A stretch of DNA of 62,718 bases from Novosphingobium sp. (GCA_029247785.1 JAQWKP010000377.1:1-62718), one strand, 5' to 3'. Shown: positions 40,623 through 54,351, counted from the stretch's first letter. Translations and numbers: made by a program. Notes: generated by a model from the letters alone, not told the origin.

Positions 40623-41351
40623 TTACCCTTTCAGGCTCCAGCCGCCTTCCACGCGGAGCGCTTGTCCGGTCGTGTAGGAGCCGCGCATCAGATAGAGATA
40701 AGCCTCAGCCGCCTCATCCGGAGTGCCAACGCGCGGTAACAGTTGCTTGGAGAGGCGCGCTTCCTGGAATTTGCGGAACTCGGGCGGGACATTGTCGAAG
40801 GCTTCGGTCAGGATTGCGCCCGGGCATACCGCGTTGACGCGGATCGGCGCGAGTTCGACGGCGAGGCCCAGTACCAGATGCTCGACCGCACCGGCCATCG
40901 CGGCAGCTGTTGCCATGCCCTTGTCGGGTCGGTGAGCGGCCATGCCGTTGGTCAGGGTGATAGATCCGCCGGGCGGCACGCATTTCGCGCCGTGTTTTGC
41001 CACCGCCAATGCGCCCCAGAAGCGCACTTCGAACAATTCCGCCGCTGCCTTGAGGTCGGTTTGCGAAAATTCGGTCTGCTCAACCGGGCCCCAGTCGGCT
41101 GCGGTGAATACAATGTGGTCGAATGAGCCGGAGCTTGCGAAGAATGCTTCGATTGCGGCTTCGTCGGTCACGTCGAGCGTGGCGCTTTCTCCCCCGCCGA
41201 GGCGATCGAGCGCACCGCGCAGTTTTTCCTCGCTGGTTGAGGCGATCGTAACTCGCGCACCCTCGGAAAGCGCCGCGCTGGCGATTGCGAAGCCTATCCC
41301 CGATGAGCCGCCAATGATGAGTATCCGCTTGTCTTTTAGGACCTTGCCCAT
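40623..41351 (-). CDS. SDR oxidoreductase (no canonical YxxxK)
   Basis: GGSSGIG, RVNAVCPG, TGQ.L.VEGG. Confidence 0.85.
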   Translation of the reverse strand: MGKVLKDKRILIIGGSSGIGFAIASAALSEGARVTIASTSEEKLRGALDRLGGGESATLDVTDEAAIEAFFASSGSFDHIVFTAADWGPVEQTEFSQTDLKAAAELFEVRFWGALAVAKHGAKCVPPGGSITLTNGMAAHRPDKGMATAAAMAGAVEHLVLGLAVELAPIRVNAVCPGAILTEAFDNVPPEFRKFQEARLSKQLLPRVGTPDEAAEAYLYLMRGSYTTGQALRVEGGWSLKG

Positions 41352-41447
41352 TGTACTTCCCCAGAGCTGCCTCGACTAAACCACTTAGCGCCTGACAGGC
41401 AAAGCCGGAACTGACATAATCGCGCGAAACACTTGGGAGAGGTGGAC

Positions 41448-42392
41448 ATGGCAACCCAGTCGCTAAAATCCGGCAAGACGCTGCATATCCAGCCGCTTAC
41501 CGGCTCAATCGGCGCCGAAGCGCGGGGCGTCGATCTCAGCCGTGAGGTCCCGGAGGATGTTGCCGAGGCGATCCGTCAGGCCTTCGCCGAGCACCTTGTG
41601 CTGGTATTCCGCAATGAGAACGACATTAATGAGGATGAGCAGAACCGCCTTGCAGCGCTATTCGGGGAATTGCAGCCGCTCCAGGTTTTTCAGTTTCTCG
41701 GCGCGATGCAGGCCTCGATCACGTTCAACCCGGGGTCTCGGATCGAGGCTTCGAACGACGATAACGCGCCCAAGGGCAGCGCCCCGGTCCAGCGCAATGA
41801 TTTGATGGCGCTGGGTCTGGCTGGCGAATTTGATGGCTGGCATGTCGACAATGCATTTGCTCATTTCCTGCCCAAGGCGGCGGTGCTGCGCGCGGATGTG
41901 ATTGCACCGGTCGGGGGCGACACCTGTTTTGCAGGGCTGACTGCGGCCTATGACTTGCTGTCACCGATGATGCAGGAGTGGCTGGCCGACGCAAAGGCGG
42001 TCTATCTCGTTCCGGACGGTTTCAAGGAAGGCATCAACATCCACCAATATGGACCGGATGCCGAGGAGCGATTCGATGCCGAATATCCGCCCAGGGAATG
42101 GCCGCTGGTGATCGCGCACCCGGTTACGGGCCGCAAGGCGCTGTTTATCGTGCCGGGCTATGTCGCGCATATTGTTGGGCTCAGCCGGCCGGAAAGCCAT
42201 GCGATGATCCGCATGCTGTGCCAGCACGTCCGTTCAGCCAGCTTCATTTACCGTCACCATTGGCAGAAGGGCGATCTCGTGGTGTGGGACGAGGTTTTTG
42301 CGCTGCACCGCGCGCCTGACGATTTCATGCCGCATGATCGCAAGGTGGTGCGCGTTACTGCCGGGCAACAGGTTCCAACGGCGGCCTCATAG
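41448..42392 (+). CDS. TauD/TfdA family Fe(II)/2-oxoglutarate dioxygenase
   Basis: GAEARGVDL, WHVD, GGDT, HPVTGRK, WD...LHR. Confidence 0.92.
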   Translation: MATQSLKSGKTLHIQPLTGSIGAEARGVDLSREVPEDVAEAIRQAFAEHLVLVFRNENDINEDEQNRLAALFGELQPLQVFQFLGAMQASITFNPGSRIEASNDDNAPKGSAPVQRNDLMALGLAGEFDGWHVDNAFAHFLPKAAVLRADVIAPVGGDTCFAGLTAAYDLLSPMMQEWLADAKAVYLVPDGFKEGINIHQYGPDAEERFDAEYPPREWPLVIAHPVTGRKALFIVPGYVAHIVGLSRPESHAMIRMLCQHVRSASFIYRHHWQKGDLVVWDEVFALHRAPDDFMPHDRKVVRVTAGQQVPTAAS

Positions 42393-42418
42393 AGAAGCGA
42401 CGGGAAGGATATTGCCAT

Positions 42419-42886
42419 ATGGACCCGATCGAGGAGTTCAGGGCGATTGAGGAGATTCGGCAGCTGAAATCGCGCTATTTCAGGTTCGTGGACACCAAGG
42501 ATTGGGAAGGGCTCGCCACGCTGTTCTGCGAGGATGCGGTTTTCGATACGCGCGGTGCTGCAGGGCAGGAAGAGCCGGCTGAGGACGGCCCGCAGGTCTC
42601 GCGGGGTCGGAAAGCGATTGTTCGATACATCAGCGAAGGCCTGCAACATGCGGTTTCGGTCCACCATGGGCACGGCCATGAGGTGACGATCGATTCATCC
42701 AAGGAAGCGCATGGTGTCATCGCCATGGAGGACTTTGTCGAGTGGCAGAAACCCTTCAAGGCCAGCTTGCGGGGCTATGGCCACTATCATGAGGTTTACC
42801 GGATCGAAGACGGGGCCTGGCAGATATCGAAATCGACCCTGACGCGGCTGCGGGTCGATACTGATCTGCCTGCCGAAGCGATGTAG
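42419..42886 (+). CDS. NTF2-like / SnoaL_4 (BaiE-like) protein
   Basis: IRQLKSRYFRFVDTKDW, SVHHGH, MED, GYGHYHE. Confidence 0.88.
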   Translation: MDPIEEFRAIEEIRQLKSRYFRFVDTKDWEGLATLFCEDAVFDTRGAAGQEEPAEDGPQVSRGRKAIVRYISEGLQHAVSVHHGHGHEVTIDSSKEAHGVIAMEDFVEWQKPFKASLRGYGHYHEVYRIEDGAWQISKSTLTRLRVDTDLPAEAM

Positions 42887-42893
42887 GCCAATC

Positions 42894-44531
42894 CTATTCC
42901 CAGTCCCTGACCGGTGTCGGTTGCAAAGGCGGATCCGGCAGCACGACATTGACGTCCTTGGCATAGGCATCCCATGCTTCCAGCATCGCGGCCTTCTTTT
43001 TCGGCTCGGTATCCGAGAGGTCCTGTGTCTCGCCCGGATCGAGGCGGATGTTGAACAGTCGCCATCTTTTGTCGCCGATATCGGTGATCTTCCAGTCGCC
43101 GCGACGCAATGCGCGCGAGCCGAATAGCTCGGTGCCGACCGCTTTGTCTTCGGGATAGACCGCCGCACCGGTGCTGAGCAGCGGGCCCCAACTCAACCCG
43201 TCGATAGGCTGTACAGCTTGTCCGGCAAACACTCCGGGTTCGACTTCGACTCCGGCCATGTCGAGCGCGGTCGGGACGATATCGGTGACATTGGTATAGG
43301 CGCCGCTGATCGCTCCGCTTTGGCTGACACCGGGCCCCGAAACGAATGCTGCGGTGCGGATGCCACCTTCGCTGGCGAATGTTTTCCAGCGCCAGGACGG
43401 TGCGCTCGCTGCTTGAGCCCAGCCCGGGCCGTACTGGATATAGCTGCTGGCCGAGCCCATCTCCTCGGGTTTGCCTTCGCCCAGGCCTGTCGGCACGTCG
43501 CGCCCCTCGGCCCCGTTGTCGGACAGGAAGAAGATGACGGTGTTGTCGTATTCACCTAAGGCCTTGAGTTGATCGACCACTGTTCCGACTGCTGAATCGA
43601 CCTCCTCGACCATCGCCGCATAGACCTCCATGCGGCGTGAGGCGAGGCGCTGCTCCTCTGGAGAGAGCGAATTCCAGCTGGCAGCATCGACCATCCGGTG
43701 CGGATCGACCGAGGCATCCATCAGCCCCAGTTCCTTCTGGCGCTGCAGCCGTTTCAGCCGCAAGGCTTCATAGCCAGCATCATATTGGCCGCGATATTTG
43801 GCAATTGTCTCGGGTGGCGCCTGCAAGGGCGCATGCGGCGCGGTGAATGTGAGAAAGGCGAGGAAGGGCTTGTCCGCTTCCGGTCCGGCTTCGCTCGCAT
43901 CCAGCTGTTCAACCAGCTTGGTGGCAAAGAAGCGCGAGGAATAGAAATCCTCGGGCAATTGCGTGACCACCGTGCCATTCTCGCGATACCCAGACATCTT
44001 GTTCGGGTCCGGCGACAGGCCTAGGCCGAAATGGTTGTGGCAGCAATTGAGCATCGCAAAGCTGTTCTGAAATCCGCGCGCATGGGGCGACTGGTCGGCC
44101 TGAACACCAAGGTGCCACTTGCCCGAAAAAAAGGTCCGATAGCCCGCCGCCGATAGCCTTTCGCCGAGCGTGACGGCATCGCCGCGAAGGTGGCCTTCAT
44201 AGCCGGTCTGGCCGACCTGGTTGTCCTGTATCGATTCGGGCATGTTGCCGAGCCCGGCGCGGTGGCTGTCGCTGCCGGTCAGCAGCATCGCCCGGGTTGG
44301 CGCACAGGCGGCGGCGGTGTGAAAGTCGGCCATGCGCAGGCCGGACATCGCCAGCCGATCGAGATTGGGAGTCGATATTTCGCCGCCGAATGCGCCGAGG
44401 TCCGAGAATCCAAGATCGTCGGCGACGATGACGAGGAAGTTGGGCGGGCTTGGCCGTTCCTCTGCGTGAGCCAGAGAAGTTGTGGCCAAAAACGCAGCGG
44501 CGGCGGCAAGCAACGGCGGTCTGGAAGGCAT
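42894..44531 (-). CDS. Exported arylsulfatase (formylglycine-dependent)
   Basis: Signal peptide (AHA), ADDLG, CAPTRAMLLTG, GKWHLG, APHAPLQ, SDNG. Confidence 0.93.
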   Translation of the reverse strand: MPSRPPLLAAAAAFLATTSLAHAEERPSPPNFLVIVADDLGFSDLGAFGGEISTPNLDRLAMSGLRMADFHTAAACAPTRAMLLTGSDSHRAGLGNMPESIQDNQVGQTGYEGHLRGDAVTLGERLSAAGYRTFFSGKWHLGVQADQSPHARGFQNSFAMLNCCHNHFGLGLSPDPNKMSGYRENGTVVTQLPEDFYSSRFFATKLVEQLDASEAGPEADKPFLAFLTFTAPHAPLQAPPETIAKYRGQYDAGYEALRLKRLQRQKELGLMDASVDPHRMVDAASWNSLSPEEQRLASRRMEVYAAMVEEVDSAVGTVVDQLKALGEYDNTVIFFLSDNGAEGRDVPTGLGEGKPEEMGSASSYIQYGPGWAQAASAPSWRWKTFASEGGIRTAAFVSGPGVSQSGAISGAYTNVTDIVPTALDMAGVEVEPGVFAGQAVQPIDGLSWGPLLSTGAAVYPEDKAVGTELFGSRALRRGDWKITDIGDKRWRLFNIRLDPGETQDLSDTEPKKKAAMLEAWDAYAKDVNVVLPDPPLQPTPVRDWE

Positions 44532-44666
44532 GCTGATCCCCAATATCGGCGCGTTGCGCCGGGTCTGTTGCCATGCTGCCCGCTCTGGAGCTGGTCTGCA
44601 ATAAGTTCGATTGATCTTGCCCGGCTGCCATGTACATTCGGCTCGATAATGCCGGGAGAGCAGATC

Positions 44667-45494
44667 ATGTCGGCGACTACCACAAGCATCAAGGTGACGC
44701 CGATCACGCCGTCGATCGGCGCGGTGGTTGAGGGTGTGGACTTGCGCGAGCCTCTCGATGAGGAGACCGTCCGCCAATTGCGCGAAATCTGGCTCGATCG
44801 CGGCGTGATATTCCTGCGCGATCAGGGCATCTCAGAGGAGCAGTTGGAGCGCTACATCGGCTATTTTGGCACGCCGATTACTGAACCGTCCAATGTGTCA
44901 TATGGTGCTCCGTCGGATGCCCCGCCGGTCCATTCGGGCGACAGCGGGCTGGTCAAGGCGGTGGCCGAGCGGTGGCATGCCGATGCCAGCTGGTTGGCCG
45001 AGCCACCGGCGGCGACCGCGCTGCGCATGGTGCAGATTCCGGAAGTTGGCGGTGATACCTGTTGGTCGAATGTGACCCAGGCCTATGAGGACCTGATCGA
45101 GCCGCTACGGGCCTTGCTTGATAGTCTTGATGCCGTCCACTGGATGGCACCTTCACTGGCGGCGATGGGAGTCGACGCGCAGGACGACAAGACCGAATAC
45201 ACTCATCCGGTGATTGCGGTTCATCCCGAAACCGGTCGCAGGGCGCTGTTTGTCAGCGAGGGTTGGACCAAGTGCATCGTTGGTCTTCCAGCCTCTCAGG
45301 GCAGCCACTTGCTGGCGCTTGTCTATGATCACATCAAGTCGCCTCACTATACGATGCGCTGGCGCTGGGCTCCAGGCGACATTGCGCTGTGGGACAACCG
45401 CGCAGTCCAGCATTTCGCTGTGCCAGATTACGATTCAGGCCGCATCATTCAGCGGGTCGTCACCGCCGGTGTGCGGCCAGTCGGTCCGCAATAG
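44667..45494 (+). CDS. TauD/TfdA family dioxygenase (taurine/alkylsulfate type)
   Basis: WHAD, GGDT, HPETGR, WDNRAVQH. Confidence 0.93.
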   Translation: MSATTTSIKVTPITPSIGAVVEGVDLREPLDEETVRQLREIWLDRGVIFLRDQGISEEQLERYIGYFGTPITEPSNVSYGAPSDAPPVHSGDSGLVKAVAERWHADASWLAEPPAATALRMVQIPEVGGDTCWSNVTQAYEDLIEPLRALLDSLDAVHWMAPSLAAMGVDAQDDKTEYTHPVIAVHPETGRRALFVSEGWTKCIVGLPASQGSHLLALVYDHIKSPHYTMRWRWAPGDIALWDNRAVQHFAVPDYDSGRIIQRVVTAGVRPVGPQ

Positions 45495-45505
45495 GGGAGA
45501 GCCAG

Positions 45506-46078
45506 ATGGATGCGCAGACAAAGATGGCAGCAGGCGTGCTCAGCCATGTCGAGGCGATCTATCGCCCCGGAGACCGCCAGCTCGCCACCGATCTGTTCGA
45601 GGCTTTGGGCTGCAAGACCTATGACACCGAAACGCCAAGCCTTGCCGGGAGCAGCTATATTTCGGTCCATCCCGATCACAGTGACCGCAGTCTCGATAAT
45701 GTCCTCTACCTGTCCGAAATGACCGAAGCGCATTGCGGGCTGGATGATATCCTCAAGGCGCGGCTCGAAAGTGATGAGGAACTGCGTGCGGCGCGTGATC
45801 AATACCGGAACATGGCTGACGAAAAGCCGTTCGGCCTGGCACACATCGCGATCCGCTACCCGACTTACGACATGCTGGAGCAGGTGCTGGCCGAGGCCGA
45901 GCAAAAGCTCACACCCGAGATGAGAACGCGCGCATCGCTCAGGATATTCCGGCCAGGCGACAGCAAGGATATTGGCTGGGACAGCATTCAGGCCTTTGTT
46001 TACACCGATATCGCGGTTTCCGGCATATCGGTATTCGGGCAGGTTTTTGAATTGTCGGCCTATGGAGAGTGGAGCTGA
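45506..46078 (+). CDS. Hypothetical protein, possible VOC-like fold
   Basis: GGAGAG RBS, typical codon usage, TGATG coupling to the next gene. Confidence 0.75.
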   Translation: MDAQTKMAAGVLSHVEAIYRPGDRQLATDLFEALGCKTYDTETPSLAGSSYISVHPDHSDRSLDNVLYLSEMTEAHCGLDDILKARLESDEELRAARDQYRNMADEKPFGLAHIAIRYPTYDMLEQVLAEAEQKLTPEMRTRASLRIFRPGDSKDIGWDSIQAFVYTDIAVSGISVFGQVFELSAYGEWS

Positions 46079-46542
46079 TGTCAGACGACAAATTGCAGGA
46101 GCTGTTTGATATTGAGGCGATCAAGCAGCTCAAGGCGCAATATTGCGTCTGCGTTGCCAATGAGGACTGGGATACCTTCTTCACCCTATTCGCCGAGGAC
46201 CTTGAATTCGTCATGCCGGCGGGCGACAGCTTCAAATCGCGCAGCGCATTTTACGACGTGCACAAGGTCAGCCTGCAGGATCCGAAGGTCTGGGGCGTAG
46301 TGCGCTGCTTCACGCCGATCATCACCATCACCGGGCCGAACAGCGCGACAGGATTATGGGCGATGGAAGACGTGCATGTCTGGCCGCCATTCGAGGGGCC
46401 CCGGGTCGGCCATCATGGCTATGGCCATTATCACGAGGACTATGTCCGCCTCGATGAAGGTTGGCGCTTCAAGCGTATCGAAGTGACCTATAACCGCATG
46501 GACGCGCTGGAAGGCGGTATGGCTGAGGGTGCGGAGTTGTGA
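46078..46542 (+). CDS. NTF2-like / SnoaL_4 (BaiE-like) protein
   Basis: IKQLKAQY, WAMED, GYGHYHEDY. Confidence 0.85.
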   Translation: MSDDKLQELFDIEAIKQLKAQYCVCVANEDWDTFFTLFAEDLEFVMPAGDSFKSRSAFYDVHKVSLQDPKVWGVVRCFTPIITITGPNSATGLWAMEDVHVWPPFEGPRVGHHGYGHYHEDYVRLDEGWRFKRIEVTYNRMDALEGGMAEGAEL

Positions 46543-46548
46543 GTCGCT

Positions 46549-47649
46549 TCACACGTTGAATTTGAAATGCAGCACGTCGCCATCCTTGACGACGTAATCC
46601 TTGCCTTCCTGGCGTAGCTTGCCGGCGTCTCGCGCGGCATTCTCACCGCCCAGCGAGACGAAATCGTCAAACGCGATTGTCTCGGAGCGGATGAAGCCGC
46701 GTTGCATGTCGGAATGGATTTCACCCGCTGCCTCGGGGGCTTTGGCGCCGCGATGAGCGGTCCATGCGCGCGCTTCCTTGGGGCCGACGGTGAAGAAGGT
46801 GATCAGGTCGAGCAGATCATAGCCAGCGCGAATGATGCGGGTGAGGCCGGTTTCGGACAGACCCATCTCTTCCAGGAAGATCAGTCGTTCGTCAGGCTCC
46901 ATCGCGATCAGCTCGGCCTCGATCGCTGCCGAGACGATCACCGCATTTGCACCCTGGGTCTTGGCCATTTCGAACACGCGGGCTGAAAAGTCATTGCCCT
47001 CGGCAGCGGCGTCCTCTTCGACATTGCAGACGTAGAGCACTGGCTTCGCGGTGAGCAGCTGGGCCTGGCGGAAGATTCGCGCTTCCTCTTCGTCCTTGGG
47101 CTCGGTGAGCCGGGCGGGCTTGCCCTCGCGCAGCAGCTCGAGAGACTGGCCGAGCACATTGGCAGTGATCTTGGCCTCCTTGTCGCCTCCCGTGGCGCGC
47201 TTGGCCGCAGCAGGAACGCGCTTTTCGAGGCTTTCGAGATCGGCCAGCAGCAGCTCGGTTTCCACCGTTTCGGCATCGGCGAGAGGGTCGACATGGTTTT
47301 CGACATGCTGGATGTCGTCGTCCTCGAAGCAGCGCAGCACATGGATGATCGCATCGACTTCGCGGATGTTGGCGAGGAACTGGTTGCCCAAGCCTTCGCC
47401 CTGCGATGCACCGCGCACCAGGCCGGCGATATCGACGAAGCCGAGCTGGGTCTCGATCTCCTTGTCCGATTTGGCAATTTCGGCCAACTGGTCGAGGCGC
47501 GGGTCAGGTACGCCGACCTGGCCGACATTGGGCTCAATCGTGCAAAACGGATAATTCGCAGCCTGTGCGGACTGGGTCTCGGTCAGAGCATTAAACAAGG
47601 TCGACTTGCCGACATTGGGCAGGCCGACAATCCCGCAACGAAAACCCAT
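46549..47649 (-). CDS. ychF: Redox-regulated ATPase YchF
   Basis: GIVGLPNVGKST, NYPFCTIEPN, DIAGLV. Confidence 0.97.
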   Translation of the reverse strand: MGFRCGIVGLPNVGKSTLFNALTETQSAQAANYPFCTIEPNVGQVGVPDPRLDQLAEIAKSDKEIETQLGFVDIAGLVRGASQGEGLGNQFLANIREVDAIIHVLRCFEDDDIQHVENHVDPLADAETVETELLLADLESLEKRVPAAAKRATGGDKEAKITANVLGQSLELLREGKPARLTEPKDEEEARIFRQAQLLTAKPVLYVCNVEEDAAAEGNDFSARVFEMAKTQGANAVIVSAAIEAELIAMEPDERLIFLEEMGLSETGLTRIIRAGYDLLDLITFFTVGPKEARAWTAHRGAKAPEAAGEIHSDMQRGFIRSETIAFDDFVSLGGENAARDAGKLRQEGKDYVVKDGDVLHFKFNV

Positions 47650-47734
47650 CACATGCTCCTGATCGCGGCGTTCATGCCGCCAGAGCGCGGGCCTTTAGCC
47701 GGGGGGAGGCGGTTTGACCAGAGGCAGCCCGATG

Positions 47735-48730
47735 TCAGTCCAGCACTGCCTTGGCCCATTCGCCATAGGGCATCCTGCCGAGCCATTTTAGCTGGACCTC
47801 ACGGCTGATGCGATTGATCTCGAGCTGAGGCTTGGGGCCGGGGTGTACGGGCCGTCGCAGCGGCCTCGTGCCAGTGGGCATGGCTGCAACCTCGGCGATG
47901 GCGAGCGCGACCATGTTCGGATCGGGCGCGTTGGGCCATGTTCTGCCGCGCCGCATGCCAGACATCCGCTTCACCATTTCGGGATAGCCGGAGGAATGCT
48001 TTTCTTCCATCCGCTCGGCAAGAGCTTCAGTCAGCTTGGCGCGGTTATTGCCGATATTGGTGGGGAAACCGCCGGGCTCGATAATGCACACCTCGATGCC
48101 ATGCGGAACAAGCTCATAGGCGAGCTGTTCGCACATCGATTCGACTGCGAACTTGCTCGCCGAATAAATGCCGCCGCCCGGCATGATGACCCGGCCCATC
48201 TGCGATGAGACGTTGAAGATCAGTCCGGACCTGCGGCTGCGCATGCCCGGCAGCACCGCGCGGATCGTACGCAGATAGCCATAGACATTGGTGTCAAACG
48301 ATAGCTTGGTCGCTTCCATGTCCTGAAGTTCGACAGGACCGCTGATATTGATCCCGGCATTGTTGACCAGTATGTCGAGTGGTCCGCCGTTCATCCGCTC
48401 GGCCTCGGCAATGGCACCTGCAACCAGACCGTCTGACAGCACATCGAGCTCAAGAATATGCAGGTCGAGCTTTTCATCAGCCGCTATCTTGAGCAATTCA
48501 AATCCCTCGGGACGCGGCATGTTGCGCATGGTCGCAAACACCTTCGCGCCCCGGCGAGCGAGAAGTTTCGCGGTGAGATTGCCGAAGCCGGAAGAAGTGC
48601 CGGTTATGAGGACGCTCACGCCGGTGAAATCGCGTAGGGCGGGGGATGTCGCCATGACGGTCTCACTCGCTGCCAGGCTTGCGACAGCCGCGGTTCCGGC
48701 GAGCAGATTGCGACGGGTCAGGTCGGTCAT
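47735..48730 (-). CDS. SDR oxidoreductase with twin-arginine signal-like N-terminus
   Basis: MTDLTRRNLLAGTAAVASLAA; TGTSSGFG, NNAG, YSASK. Confidence 0.88.
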   Translation of the reverse strand: MTDLTRRNLLAGTAAVASLAASETVMATSPALRDFTGVSVLITGTSSGFGNLTAKLLARRGAKVFATMRNMPRPEGFELLKIAADEKLDLHILELDVLSDGLVAGAIAEAERMNGGPLDILVNNAGINISGPVELQDMEATKLSFDTNVYGYLRTIRAVLPGMRSRRSGLIFNVSSQMGRVIMPGGGIYSASKFAVESMCEQLAYELVPHGIEVCIIEPGGFPTNIGNNRAKLTEALAERMEEKHSSGYPEMVKRMSGMRRGRTWPNAPDPNMVALAIAEVAAMPTGTRPLRRPVHPGPKPQLEINRISREVQLKWLGRMPYGEWAKAVLD

Positions 48731-48984
48731 GTTTGTTCTCCAGGGTAAACCAGTTCGATTCGCGGGACACCAAGCTCGCAGACTGGGCGCAATGCATCCT
48801 CGAAATACCGTCGCATCATGTCCTTGGGGACAAGGCAGTCGGCGCAAGCATCGGGTCCCGCTTCGATCCGGGCAACCAAATTGGATCCAGCAGCTTCCGA
48901 CAGTTCCAGAGCGTAGCCGTCGGCTTCAAGCATCGAGCCCAATCTCGAGAGCGCTTCGGTGATGAAAGGGGGAGGCGTGGGCAT
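48727..48984 (-). CDS. Small CxxC protein, NifU C-terminal-like
   Basis: LEADG...DACADCLVP; ATGA overlap with the downstream SDR. Confidence 0.75.
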   Translation of the reverse strand: MPTPPPFITEALSRLGSMLEADGYALELSEAAGSNLVARIEAGPDACADCLVPKDMMRRYFEDALRPVCELGVPRIELVYPGEQT

Positions 48985-48992
48985 CGCGGCTC

Positions 48993-50078
48993 CTAGCTGG
49001 GCGTCCTGATTTTGCGTGTGACCGCATTCATCATGCCTTGAAGGTAATAGGGCCAGCTTCCCGCGGGGCCACCGCAGGGGACGACGAACAGCTCGTCAGG
49101 CGAGGCCGAGCCTGCCACCGCCATGAAGTTCTCCTCATCGCCCGGTTCAACTTCTTCCAGCCGAGGCCGCTGGAATGAGACTTTCCAGCCCTCGCGTTTC
49201 AACCAGGCGACCGAGCGGCGTGTCCCATCGTACAGCGCCTCGCGAATGTCCGCCTTGGTCCATCCGGCATTGGCGAACAGGGCAGCGTTTTCGATCGGCA
49301 ATAGCAATGCAGCGCAGCCGCTGGGCCGCAGGTTTCCTGCGCCGACGATATAGTGGGCCATGGTATCGATCCATGCGTCGGGCGTCTGTTCGGAATGGGC
49401 GCAAATCCAGTTATAGCCGGAGGTGAACATCAGCGTGATCGTGCTGTCTTCCGGCGCAAATCCTCGTTCGACATGGACTGGAAGCAGCGAGGGAAAAGCC
49501 TCTTCGTTCTCGATGATGTGATAGCCCGCATACTTGGCAGGCTGGCCCATCATCGATCGGTCCAGCTTGGGCCGCCCATGCTCATGCGGCTCACCGCCTG
49601 CACCGGCGATGGATGCCAGCGTGTTGATCTGGATGAGGCGCACAGCCCGTCCGATAGAGGAATTTGCACGGTTTCCCGGGCCGAGCATATTGCCGTGGAA
49701 ATTCATCCCCAATTTATGACGGATCGGGCCATTGACGATGAAGCCGATGGTGAAACTGCCGGTTGAGGTGTTCACCACATGGGTCGGGAAATCATGCTCC
49801 AGCATCGCTTCGACGATCGCGACGACGACCGGGAAATATTCGGGCAGGCAACCGGCCATGACCGCGTTGATCGCAAGTTTCTCGGCATAGACCGGGATCT
49901 CGCGTTCGTTGTAATAGCCGATCTTGCTGTCCGCCTCGAGCCCGGCTGCATCGAGGAAACGCGCGACCTTTTCAGGCGTTGGCGGTATGATCGGCAAGCC
50001 GTCGGTCCAGCCCTTGGCGTGGTAGAACTCGTTGGCCTCGTCGAAATCGCTGACGTCGAACTGAAGGGTTTCATTCAT
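48993..50078 (-). CDS. Conserved uncharacterised protein, the usual partner of UGSC-family proteins
   Basis: WTDGLPIIPPT, EKLAINAVMAGC, GPGNRANSSIGRA, IENE, LHVERG-like and GGPAG motifs. Confidence 0.8.
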   Translation of the reverse strand: MNETLQFDVSDFDEANEFYHAKGWTDGLPIIPPTPEKVARFLDAAGLEADSKIGYYNEREIPVYAEKLAINAVMAGCLPEYFPVVVAIVEAMLEHDFPTHVVNTSTGSFTIGFIVNGPIRHKLGMNFHGNMLGPGNRANSSIGRAVRLIQINTLASIAGAGGEPHEHGRPKLDRSMMGQPAKYAGYHIIENEEAFPSLLPVHVERGFAPEDSTITLMFTSGYNWICAHSEQTPDAWIDTMAHYIVGAGNLRPSGCAALLLPIENAALFANAGWTKADIREALYDGTRRSVAWLKREGWKVSFQRPRLEEVEPGDEENFMAVAGSASPDELFVVPCGGPAGSWPYYLQGMMNAVTRKIRTPS

Positions 50079-50325
50079 CGGGCACCTCAAGCGAGCCTTT
50101 CCAGTGGCGGTCGATCCGCCAAAGAAGTGCTGCGCCGAGAAACGGCCATAGAGCACCGGCCAAGCTGGCATGGATCGCCAACCCGATCGCTTCGATCTGC
50201 ATCGTATCCTGCCCACCAATGAACAAGGGCAGAGGTCCAGTCACAAGAATGATCAGCGCGACCACGAATAGAACCCACGGTGCATGCAGTACCGCGGCGT
50301 TGAAGATTGACCTCATCGACTTCAT
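50071..50325 (-). CDS. Small two-TM membrane protein
   Basis: Two hydrophobic segments; overlaps both neighbours (ATGA at 50322-50325, 8-bp overlap at 50071-50078). Confidence 0.7.
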   Translation of the reverse strand: MKSMRSIFNAAVLHAPWVLFVVALIILVTGPLPLFIGGQDTMQIEAIGLAIHASLAGALWPFLGAALLWRIDRHWKGSLEVPDE

Positions 50326-50867
50326 TCAGCTGCGGCCCGAAGGTCCTCGCCAAACATCACCGCCGGAATTTGCGACGCGGCATGCTGCGCGCGCTGGCGC
50401 AGGTGTGTCTCGTCAAGGCTGCCAATCGGATGATCGACGATCGCCCATTCGATTGCCGGCATATTGCTCATGCGGGTGGTGGTGATCACTGCATCGGTGA
50501 ACGGGGTGGTGCTGACCAGAACGGCGGGAATGCCCTTCTTTTCCATCTCGATGGCATTGGCGATGCCGGACGTGCTGCAGGCACCGCAATCGCCATTGGC
50601 GAGGATCACCGCGTCGCAATCGAGCAGATCGCCCCATTCGTGCTCATCCATCAGCCGGCCCGGATCGTAGATGCCGGGGACGATGGTGAAATTATAGTCC
50701 TTCGCCAGCTCCTCGCGGATGAATTCGAGCAGCTGCGAGGCGTTGAGCTTCTGGTTGCTCCACAGGCCAATGCTCTTGCCTTCGAGCGTGTCGAGCCGTG
50801 GGGCGAGCGGCAAGCCCGCTGAAGCGCTATCGGCGTCGGATGGTTGGGTTGGGTCGAGAACGATCAT
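50322..50867 (-). CDS. UGSC-family (seleno)protein homologue, Cys form (DCGAC)
   Basis: VLDPT...LAPRLDTLEGKSIGL..N.K.N, GDCGACS, E.KGIPAV, HPI. Confidence 0.78.
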   Translation of the reverse strand: MIVLDPTQPSDADSASAGLPLAPRLDTLEGKSIGLWSNQKLNASQLLEFIREELAKDYNFTIVPGIYDPGRLMDEHEWGDLLDCDAVILANGDCGACSTSGIANAIEMEKKGIPAVLVSTTPFTDAVITTTRMSNMPAIEWAIVDHPIGSLDETHLRQRAQHAASQIPAVMFGEDLRAAAE

Positions 50868-50919: not shown

Positions 50920-51492
50920 CTAACCTTCCTGGAGCCGCATGGCTACATCATTCATGAATCGCGCATCCTCGCCCTTTGCGAGCCACTCAGCTTCGGCGCT
51001 GAGCGCTCCCAGCATTTCAGCAAGATCGTCGATTTCTGCCTTGGCGTAATTGCCCAGGACATGGCCGGTTACCCGTTCCTTGTGGCCGGGATGGCCGATT
51101 CCGATGCGCACGCGGCGAAAATCGGGGCCGAGATGCTTGTCTATGGAGCGCAGGCCGTTGTGTCCGGCGGTGCCGCCACCCTGCTTCACCTTGACCTTGA
51201 ACGGAGCCAGGTCGAGTTCGTCGTGGAATACGGTGAGGGCGGACATGTCCAGCTTGAAGAAGCGCATCGCCTCACCAACCGCGCGGCCGCTCTCATTCAT
51301 GAATGTGGCGGGTTTGAGCAGGATTACCCGCTCGTTGCCGATCCGGCCATCATGGACCCAGCCCTGGAACTTTTTCTGGGCAGCTCCAAAGGAATGGACC
51401 TCGGTGATCGTATCGAGCACCATGAAACCGACATTGTGCCGGTGCATCGCATATTGCGGACCCGGATTACCAAGGCCGACCCAGAGCTGCAT
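50920..51492 (-). CDS. pth: Peptidyl-tRNA hydrolase
   Basis: GLGNPG, RHNVGF, HDELD, GHNGLRS. Confidence 0.97.
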   Translation of the reverse strand: MQLWVGLGNPGPQYAMHRHNVGFMVLDTITEVHSFGAAQKKFQGWVHDGRIGNERVILLKPATFMNESGRAVGEAMRFFKLDMSALTVFHDELDLAPFKVKVKQGGGTAGHNGLRSIDKHLGPDFRRVRIGIGHPGHKERVTGHVLGNYAKAEIDDLAEMLGALSAEAEWLAKGEDARFMNDVAMRLQEG

Positions 51493-52435: not shown

Positions 52436-53305
52436 TCAGCGTAGCCGCGTGACCGAGTAGCCCTCGGCCACGAACAGCGCCGGCAGGCCATCGGGACCCG
52501 CCATATGTGCCGCGCCGACAGCGACGAAGGGATGCTTGCCCGCTGCCAGTTCGCGAGTAACGGCCTCGCTCCAGCGCTGGTTGCGGCTGGTAAACAGCAC
52601 TGCGCGCAGCTCTGGATCGGCGAGCAGCCCGCGGCTTGTCTCCATTTCGATCGCAGCCATGTCGCCGCTGTGCCATGCTTGGGCAAGGCTGGCAGTTTCG
52701 CGGTCAAGAACGCCGGTATCGGCGACGATGGCGGTCAGAAGGTCGCGCTGTTCTGGCATCGGCAGGCCATCGAAGAGGCGCAGCTGTCCCTCGGCACCTT
52801 CCAGCTCGACAATCCGCTTGCCCTTTGCCTGCGCCACAACCGCGCGGTCGATGCCATATTCCGAATTGGCATCTGAAGTCTCGGCTCGGGCCAGCGTCAG
52901 CGCTACTGCCCAGGTTTCGATGCTGGAGAAGCCGTTGTCCTTAAGCCCGTGCTTGTCGAGCAGGCGCAGCAGGGGCGCCCGCACTTCCGGGGCAACCCGC
53001 TCGGTCAGCAAAGGCAATCCTGGAGTGTGTGCCAACTTGGCAAATGTCCGCGCCATGGCGGCCTGGTCTTCAAGCCCAGCCACCTCAACCATCAGCGTAT
53101 CGGCCTGCAACAGGGCATCGGCCACCTCAGCAGTCTGCCAAAGCGCGGGCTTTTCAAGGGCGTGGATCGTGCCGAACAGCCAGGCCTTTTGCCCCTCGGC
53201 ATTTTCGACCAGCCAGATCGCCGGATCGGCAGGGACTGGCTCGGGCGCGCAGGAGGCCAGCAGCAGCGCCGAAAAAAACGCTCGCAGCGACCGCAATCGG
53301 GTCAT
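52436..53305 (-). CDS. TraB/GumN (Tiki-like) family lipoprotein
   Basis: Lipobox LASC; LFGTIH, RN..W, AVGAAHM.G. Confidence 0.9.
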   Translation of the reverse strand: MTRLRSLRAFFSALLLASCAPEPVPADPAIWLVENAEGQKAWLFGTIHALEKPALWQTAEVADALLQADTLMVEVAGLEDQAAMARTFAKLAHTPGLPLLTERVAPEVRAPLLRLLDKHGLKDNGFSSIETWAVALTLARAETSDANSEYGIDRAVVAQAKGKRIVELEGAEGQLRLFDGLPMPEQRDLLTAIVADTGVLDRETASLAQAWHSGDMAAIEMETSRGLLADPELRAVLFTSRNQRWSEAVTRELAAGKHPFVAVGAAHMAGPDGLPALFVAEGYSVTRLR

Positions 53306-54351
53306 TGGATCCGTTCGCTGACGATTCCAGCCACGGCAAGCTGCTCCTGCAGGCTGCCTTCGCCTGCAAGGTGCCCCGCTCCGACCGCAAGGAACACCGT
53401 CCCCGGCTCATCCAGCCGCTCATCGACCCAGAGGGCCCAGGTCTTGTTGCGCGAGATAAGCAAGCGATCGATCAGCACCGGATCGGACTGGCTGGAATTC
53501 ATCAGCTCCGCCAGAGCTTCCGCATCGCCGGACTTCCACGCCTCGATCATCGCGGCAAGCTGGGTCTTTATATTGGGCAGCTCCGAGACGATCTGGCTCA
53601 GGTAATTTTTCTGCACTTCCAATGGCAAACTGTCGAACAGACTGAGCTGATATTCTGCAGTTTCAAGGCCCTCCTGTGGTATGTCGCGTTCGCTTGCCCA
53701 GGTCTCCAGCAGCTTTTCGACACCGTTCTCGCCAGCATATCCTTCCCGCATCAGCGGCAGTGTCGACAGGCCGACCGAGGCATACCAGGGTTCAAATGGA
53801 TCGAACGCCGCGTGAGGCACGCGTAGCGCGGTCAGCGCCGCCTCATAGGACGCGCGCTGCTCATCAGAGAGCAGGCTGCGTAGGGTCTTGCCATCGGTCA
53901 GCATTGCCTTGTCCATCACCAGCGCCTGCATCGTCAACGGATCGCCCCCTGTAATTTCGGTGACCAGGAGCTGCGAGGAATTTGCCGCCCGTGCGACCTC
54001 GCCGTTGAACCAGTCGATCCCTTTGGGGAGAATGTGGACGGTGCCGAAGATATAGATCGTCGTATCTTCATCTGCGACTTTCCACAAAGCAGGGTGGGCA
54101 ACTCGCGTTGGGTTGCTTTTCGATGCTTCGACCTTGTTAGGCTTGACGAGCTGAGCGGGATCGACTTTCGTAACTGCTACTGTGGCAGGTTTGTCAGGTA
54201 GACCGTACTCGACTTTGTCAATTTGGGGCTGCTCGGCAACTGTCGGTGGTTCCGGTGATTCTACTGTTTGAACCACCTTGCCATCGGCGGGTGACTGGCA
54301 TGCGGCGAGGGCGGCGAAGGCAAGGGTGCACAAGCGTGACGTCATTTTCAT
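53302..54351 (-). CDS. TraB/GumN family lipoprotein with a P/V/K-rich linker
   Basis: Lipobox LAAC; PALWKVADEDTTIYIFGTVH, AVGAGHL.G. Confidence 0.9.
   Translation of the reverse strand: MKMTSRLCTLAFAALAACQSPADGKVVQTVESPEPPTVAEQPQIDKVEYGLPDKPATVAVTKVDPAQLVKPNKVEASKSNPTRVAHPALWKVADEDTTIYIFGTVHILPKGIDWFNGEVARAANSSQLLVTEITGGDPLTMQALVMDKAMLTDGKTLRSLLSDEQRASYEAALTALRVPHAAFDPFEPWYASVGLSTLPLMREGYAGENGVEKLLETWASERDIPQEGLETAEYQLSLFDSLPLEVQKNYLSQIVSELPNIKTQLAAMIEAWKSGDAEALAELMNSSQSDPVLIDRLLISRNKTWALWVDERLDEPGTVFLAVGAGHLAGEGSLQEQLAVAGIVSERIQ

Follow-up and report, generated by a model that had tools for sequence, protein, structure and literature searches.

Organization of the locus

A stretch of 62,718 nucleotides from Novosphingobium sp. 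(GCA_029247785.1, JAQWKP010000377.1:1-62718; hereafter the window) carries five genes on the minus strand between pth and ychF. From the analyses described here we conclude that this locus is a three-gene cysteine variant of a known, uncharacterised module, formed by a UGSC-family protein and a partner named Unknown_1, together with two bystander genes. The features of the region are the following:

50920..51492, minus strand: pth, the upstream flank, 52 bp ahead of gene 1 (TIGR00447, above cut-off)
50322..50867, minus strand: gene 1, UGSC-family protein in the cysteine form (C94-G-A-C97), 181 amino acids (aa); module core
50577..50588, minus strand: CxxC motif of gene 1, TGC codons
50071..50325, minus strand: gene 2, two hydrophobic stretches, 84 aa; bystander
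48993..50078, minus strand: gene 3, WTDGLP/AVMAGC protein (Unknown_1), 361 aa; core partner
49848..49850, minus strand: Cys77 of gene 3 (AVMAGC), its sole conserved cysteine
48727..48984, minus strand: gene 4, NifU-C/Nfu-like CxxC protein (C47, C50), 85 aa; third component in its own clade
48835..48846, minus strand: C-A-D-C motif of gene 4
47735..48730, minus strand: gene 5, classical short-chain dehydrogenase/reductase (SDR) with a twin-arginine leader (TRRNLL), 331 aa; bystander
46549..47649, minus strand: ychF, the downstream flank (TIGR00092, above cut-off)

The original prediction described five co-oriented genes between pth and ychF and the motifs D-C-G-A-C (in TGC codons), AVMAGC, C-A-D-C and TRRNLL; the five open reading frames (ORFs), their junctions and all four motifs are present in the sequence. 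Genes 1 and 2 overlap by ATGA at 50322-50325 and genes 4 and 5 at 48727-48730, genes 2 and 3 overlap by 8 bp, and a gap of 8 bp separates genes 3 and 4. The start of gene 3 was taken as the ATG behind a GAGG; a TTG start proposed by the ORF caller (408 aa) was rejected, given that it would run into gene 2 and that the homologues begin at ATG. The guanine plus cytosine content of the locus equals that of its surroundings (59-60%). Homologues of its genes that carry the labels Novosphingobium and Sphingomonadales point to a sphingomonad host. Contigs from two marine metagenome studies recover the junctions: one, from the same study as the possible source run, covers 46909-50861 with 0 differences, and two contigs of the second study cover 49831-50343 (the gene 3/2/1 junctions) and 47934-48752 (the gene 5/4 junction) with 1 difference each; therefore, the locus is not an assembly artefact.

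Gene 1 is the cysteine form of a selenoprotein

UGSC belongs to the selenoprotein families found most often in the Global Ocean Sampling set, with 255 sequences in 37 samples according to Table 2 of Zhang and Gladyshev (PMC2398784), and Fig. S1A of that 2008 paper presents its fusion to Unknown_1. Since this fusion has been in print from that year, the original prediction overstates the case in calling the proposed relay undescribed. The same prediction held that UGSC has no characterised function, which agrees with the literature: the search found only selenoproteome surveys, whose accounts of the family (PMC2398784, PMC13188914, PMC1976440) assign no role to it, subscription journals and bioRxiv supplements being outside the search, and a 2026 review still lists it as uncharacterised (PMC13188914).

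The assignment of gene 1 to this family was confirmed by profile search, in which residues 3-171 matched positions 2-170 of the 172 in Pfam PF24696 with 129.2 bits (cut-off 25, E 2.3e-37). The NCBIfam equivalog NF041046 was matched with 100.6 bits (E 7.8e-29), below its cut-off of 125. We compared the motif with that of distant loci, the GTDB set, which consists of the best 80 of 617 loci collected with the gene 3 alignment. Among the 62 GTDB loci with a readable motif, the position of Cys94 is a UGA codon in 58 and a cysteine in 4, and C94-G-A-C97 aligns with the UGA-G-S-C of these proteins; the alanine variant also occurs with UGA (L019, L083). Gene 1 has no in-frame UGA, its motif cysteines being TGC codons, and a search for selA gave no match in this genome while the control search was positive. 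Together, the UGA at Cys94 in the relatives and the lack of a selA match indicate that gene 1 is the cysteine form of a selenoprotein. Exchange of selenocysteine (Sec) and cysteine at one position typically marks a catalytic redox residue.

The predicted structure of gene 1 (pLDDT, the predicted local distance difference test, 87.9) alternates strands and helices and places the CxxC at the N-terminus of helix 95-110. The model matches flavodoxin/WrbA and Rossmann-like alpha/beta proteins with middling scores, whereas the fold guessed for UGSC in the 2008 paper was thioredoxin-like (PMC2398784). Gene 1 also differs from the published UGSC in having cysteine for Sec, and C-G-A-C for U-G-S-C.

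Two further UGSC and partner pairs, both cysteine forms, are present in this genome (L002, G000:C98, and L003, G000:C257), with partners 55% and 33% identical to gene 3, respectively. In the closest orthologue of gene 1, in genome G756 (L117 174-715, G756:C406), codon 10 is an in-frame TAG, which represents an assembly error or a broken gene.

Gene 3 is the regular partner of UGSC

The motif of gene 3 is that of Unknown_1 in Fig. S1A of PMC2398784. A UGSC gene lies within 1 kb of the partner and on the same strand in 77/91 loci, 66 of them from the 80 of the GTDB set, and UGSC sequence is fused to the partner in 30 of the 46 long representatives picked out of 150. The expectation that UGSC usually sits beside a WTDGLP/AVMAGC protein is thus borne out, and the pair behaves as in the published accounts: encoded in one locus here, fused elsewhere. 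Contact between the two proteins is also predicted, although weakly. Modeling of gene 3 with gene 1 gave a complex score of 0.53, the best of 3 controls reaching 0.00, with at least 87% contact agreement among runs and a partner pLDDT of at least 90; the mark used for this score is passed by 116/157 solved complexes and 2/215 mismatches, and at scores of up to 0.60 only 18 solved complexes and both mismatches pass it.

Gene 3 matches no Pfam or NCBIfam family at cut-off, and its family, for which Pfam has no model, comprises 4030 representatives (at 50% identity, E of up to 0.001) without a clear solved fold. Cys77 is kept in 99/101 aligned members, and the polar residues D26, N71, R137, N139, R144, N152, E190 and H202 in 86-100%; in contrast, C226, C255 and C335 are not conserved. 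Given this conserved cysteine and polar set, gene 3 looks like an enzyme. With its model (pLDDT 94.3), the top Foldseek rows are class I fumarate hydratases, to whose alpha subunit (7XKY, 5L2R) gene 3 shows a weak likeness over much of its length (7XKY_A: E 1e-3, probability 0.77, TM 0.27). That subunit has three conserved cysteine ligands in its chain, whereas gene 3 has Cys77 alone.

Seven proteins of about 710-740 aa (P0247, P0251, P0254-P0256, P0258 and P0266) apparently consist of two tandem gene 3 domains, which suggests that the domain works as a dimer. Homologues of gene 3 with no UGSC within about 8 kb on each side also occur (L026, L030-L032, L038, L045, L048, L069, L070, L073 and L075), mostly in Dehalococcoidia and Poribacteria.

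This genome carries three paralogous UGSC/partner pairs, and up to five per genome are found in the genus, a multiplicity compatible with substrate-specific paralogues. Around the distant loci the recurrent neighbours, labelled by eye from N-terminal motifs and not with hidden Markov models (HMMs), are genes of general catabolism and transport that fit no fixed pathway. In one sister clade a gene for a major facilitator superfamily transporter lies behind the module (three scanned), and an actinobacterial pair (L099, 2466-4846) lies near Mrp/NBP35-like, ArsR-like and IscA-like genes.

Gene 4 and other CxxC or disulfide-handling domains linked to the partner

Gene 4 itself has no Pfam match. 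Its likeness to NifU was nevertheless confirmed with a profile of 15 family sequences, which finds the NifU C-terminal structures 1XHJ (E 1.5e-5), 2Z51 (E 2.6e-4) and 2JNV (E 3.3e-3) with the CxxC aligned; PF01106 matches 6 of the 15 (best E 3.9e-7). In length, in the L-x-x-D-G-x-D pattern and in the CxxC, gene 4 aligns with the NifU-C/Nfu carriers (PF01106; 1XHJ, 2Z51), and C47 and C50 are invariant in its family. Unlike the general Nfu carriers, it goes with a single partner, as a neighbour or in fusion, and not with the general Fe-S machinery: in 39/119 of the closest homologues gene 4 forms the C-terminal end of a fusion with gene 3, and in four distant homologues it is joined at one or the other end. 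The sections on UGSC and Unknown_1 in PMC2398784, PMC13188914 and PMC1976440 do not mention a third, NifU-like CxxC gene.

Other lineages carry different domains at this place. In the 80 GTDB loci a redoxin is found on the partner in 5 and an Nfu-like domain in 3, never both, and the add-ons fused to the partner in the 46 long representatives are AhpC-TSA/redoxin (3), FeThRed_B (2), Pyr_redox_2 (1) and, weakly, NifU (1). All of these partner-fused domains are disulfide-handling or CxxC modules, and they probably serve as exchangeable sources of electrons.

Gene 1 is related to the active-site region of GrdB and PrdB

Gene 1 matches weakly, over residues 84-160, the NCBIfam models TIGR01917, NF040794 and TIGR01918, staying below the GrdB cut-offs (22.3 vs 602.2 for TIGR01917, 17.4 vs 65.45 for TIGR01918). 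Because of these matches, GrdB/PrdB-like genes were fetched from other genomes, and six of the eight sequences served as template for an HHalign comparison with UGSC. The two align with a probability of 92.8-94.1 and E of 1-4e-7 over 77-104 columns, pairing C94 with the catalytic Sec and C97 with the next cysteine of GrdB/PrdB. By sequence comparison, gene 1 is related to the active-site region of these proteins and is not a member of their families; PF07355 has no match in this genome, and the same search was positive in 4/5 other genomes.

In proline reductase the substrate is held by one subunit and attacked by the Sec of another, PrdB; PrdC then regenerates this Sec, according to the account of the enzyme in PMC11229817. 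The module shares with PrdB/PrdA/PrdC and GrdB/GrdE/GrdA a homologous active site in which U/C-x-x-C occupies the same position, and its division into a subunit with Sec or Cys, a larger partner and a protein for electron transfer is also theirs. In contrast with those systems, no homologue of the pyruvoyl proprotein is found here and gene 3 is unrelated to their partner by HMM; gene 1 lacks the long N-terminal part of GrdB; and the host is a marine, likely aerobic alphaproteobacterium, not a Stickland fermenter.

PrdB-like genes with in-frame UGA were observed in four genomes (L164-L170), three of which have no PF09338 match; no gene 3 homologue lies within these loci.

A candidate mechanism and its alternatives

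A thiol or Fe-S relay, as originally predicted, remains the best reading of the module. In its more specific form, to which we give an even chance, genes 1, 3 and 4 encode a cytoplasmic, thiol-driven reductase of a small molecule, similar to GrdB/PrdB. The basis for this reductase is the identity of the families, their linkage and fusions, the equivalence of Sec and cysteine, the GrdB/PrdB active-site homology and the conservation of the cysteines. By analogy with PrdB, gene 3 would bind the small molecule, and Cys94 of gene 1 would play the attacking part that falls to Sec in PrdB/GrdB. Cys97 could then resolve the Cys94 adduct to form a disulfide, Cys77 of gene 3 might take over the intermediate or relay the disulfide, and electrons for its re-reduction would come from the CxxC of gene 4. 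In other lineages the reductant would be a redoxin or a ferredoxin:thioredoxin-reductase domain or, where there is no third gene, perhaps a housekeeping thioredoxin.

Several observations weigh against this reductase. In 14 of the 80 GTDB loci the retrieved DNA has no UGSC (3 of these are short or cut at the gene), and a third component is present in a minority, 8/80. The neighbours vary from locus to locus and give no pointer to a substrate. The homology to GrdB/PrdB spans just the 77-104 columns obtained with a template of 6 sequences, and PF09338, the pyruvoyl proprotein of PrdA/GrdE, matches 0/101 members of the gene 3 family and was not found in this genome, in a search that was positive in genome G789. 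The role known for the CxxC of Nfu is [4Fe-4S] binding, not disulfide exchange, in the account of PMC5014551. Finally, PrdB with cysteine replacing Sec is reported as inactive in PMC11229817, so that an all-cysteine enzyme would need a chemistry easier than C-N cleavage.

The alternative that survives best, which we consider unlikely, is a two-subunit Fe-S enzyme of the hydro-lyase type, in which C94 and C97 of gene 1, together with Cys77 of gene 3, would ligate a [4Fe-4S] cluster that has an open iron, and gene 4 would be its dedicated Nfu carrier. The conserved cysteines across the gene 1/gene 3 pair are exactly three, and the CxxC plus one distant cysteine is also the arrangement of aconitase, as PMC5014551 describes along with cluster binding by the CxxC of Nfu. 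The NifU-C-like character of gene 4 with its aligned CxxC, the weak likeness of gene 3 to the Fe-S fumarate hydratases, and the IscA-like and Mrp/NBP35-like genes near the actinobacterial locus (L099) are consistent with this enzyme.

An antioxidant or repair function with the roles reversed, in which Cys77 of gene 3 would attack a peroxide, a sulfoxide or an oxidised protein and gene 1 would be its dedicated reductant, appears improbable. It would account for the single near-invariant cysteine of gene 3 and for the fusions of redoxin and thioredoxin-reductase type; the site, with no terminator-like element carrying a real T run, might also confer housekeeping expression with pth and ychF. However, the placement between pth and ychF is confined to a few close relatives, the many divergent paralogues per genome in catabolic-looking settings suit varied small-molecule substrates better, and gene 1 is kin to GrdB/PrdB, in which Sec attacks the substrate according to PMC11229817.

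A broader and more tentative proposal is that UGSC and Unknown_1 constitute a third branch of glycine/proline reductase chemistry that works without the pyruvoyl cofactor. A GrdB-like Sec/Cys subunit would dock on the partner, receive its supply from exchangeable CxxC modules (an Nfu-like one, a redoxin or a ferredoxin:thioredoxin reductase), and reductively break bonds of the carbon-heteroatom or heteroatom-oxygen type in dissolved organic matter, a capacity that thousands of bacteria from water and soil would share; the present locus would be a Sec-free, three-protein version in which the Nfu fold was recruited as electron (or cluster) donor.

The need for Sec insertion blocks easy expression of most UGSC copies. 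Here all three parts are cysteine-only, so binding, redox cycling, Fe-S content and structure are testable in E. coli. The all-cysteine form thus offers an easy test of a question that dates from 2007, and the link to the GrdB/PrdB active site provides a concrete mechanism to test.

Genes 2 and 5 are bystanders, and the sulfatase/TauD link is not supported

The original prediction joined all five genes in a single relay that includes a membrane component and possibly an exported oxidoreductase and that might use sulfur from the neighbouring sulfatase/TauD block. Translational coupling, complete or almost so, links the five genes at this locus, and the SDR flanks the module also in genomes G756 and G746, but this model is very improbable and already largely refuted by the distribution of the genes. 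A signal peptide in gene 5 and in none of genes 1, 3 and 4 also speaks against it. Genes 2 and 5 have a distribution of their own, independent of genes 1, 3 and 4.

Gene 2 is absent from the four orthologous loci (in G756, G775, G746 and the metagenome contig L102) and has no match in 99/99 partner loci. In G756, the closest locus (82% identity for gene 1, 76% for gene 3), genes 1 and 3 abut via ATGA, which indicates that gene 2 was inserted at their junction. Of its homologues in the genus three are credible (E 1.8e-9 to 7e-5), and these lie right behind nuoG and before nuoH, within the complex I operon; in this genome nuoG and nuoH abut. In the 4/4 cases, gene 2 included, the upstream gene ends in A-A-E-stop, encoded by GCAGC-N-GAATGA. 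Gene 2, with hydropathy peaks of 2.6 and 1.6, is most plausibly a small, roaming ORF for a membrane protein.

More generally, an ORF family of about 85 aa with two helices starts inside the stop codon of genes ending in A-A-E (L156 1365-1625, L157, L158 1489-1743, and 50071-50325 of the window), which suggests that it moves by way of short homologous stretches where genes are translationally coupled. In L158 an extra gap precedes nuoH.

Gene 5 is an SDR with a twin-arginine leader, as proposed. It matches PF00106 with 145.8 bits (cut-off 26.6, E 1.4e-42) and has the TGxxxGxG, NNAG and YxxxK motifs. The Pfam TAT_signal model stays under its cut-off (14.2 vs 22.7), but the leader, two arginines followed by a hydrophobic, Ala-rich stretch, is kept in all 30 orthologues fetched, and for this reason the signal is likely real. 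Close orthologues are present in 45/376 genus genomes. In the 29 fetched from outside this genome (L173-L201), pth or ychF is adjacent in 25 and the module in 2; G775 and L102 carry the module without the SDR. The SDR is the older tenant of the pth-ychF site, and the module probably arrived next to it later. In its own right, this gene (47735-48730) is a resident of that site in many genomes of the genus and encodes a predicted exported NAD(P)-binding enzyme.

The sulfatase/TauD block, at 41433-45494, lies beyond ychF with its TauD genes on the opposite strand. The proposed sulfur link is not supported: TauD is found near the partner gene in 3/99 loci and a sulfatase in 1/99, and the interval differs in G775 and G746. 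By binned tblastn, this genome has about 63-68 TauD-like loci, so that proximity to one is expected by chance. Work on the module is best done without gene 2, gene 5 and the sulfur block.

Other genes in the window

The interval from mutL to ychF (40623-46542) holds genes for one SDR, for TauD-like dioxygenases and SnoaL-like proteins (two of each) and for a sulfatase whose N-terminus is signal-like, as well as an ORF of 190 aa that has no Pfam match; G775 and G746 carry other genes there. The large paralogue expansions counted in this genome by binned tblastn comprise about 65 TauD-like, 54 SDR-like and 12 SnoaL-like loci. Between rplY and glyQ, two tandem and mutually similar genes (52436-54351), which we take to be TraB/GumN-like, are conserved in G775 and G746.

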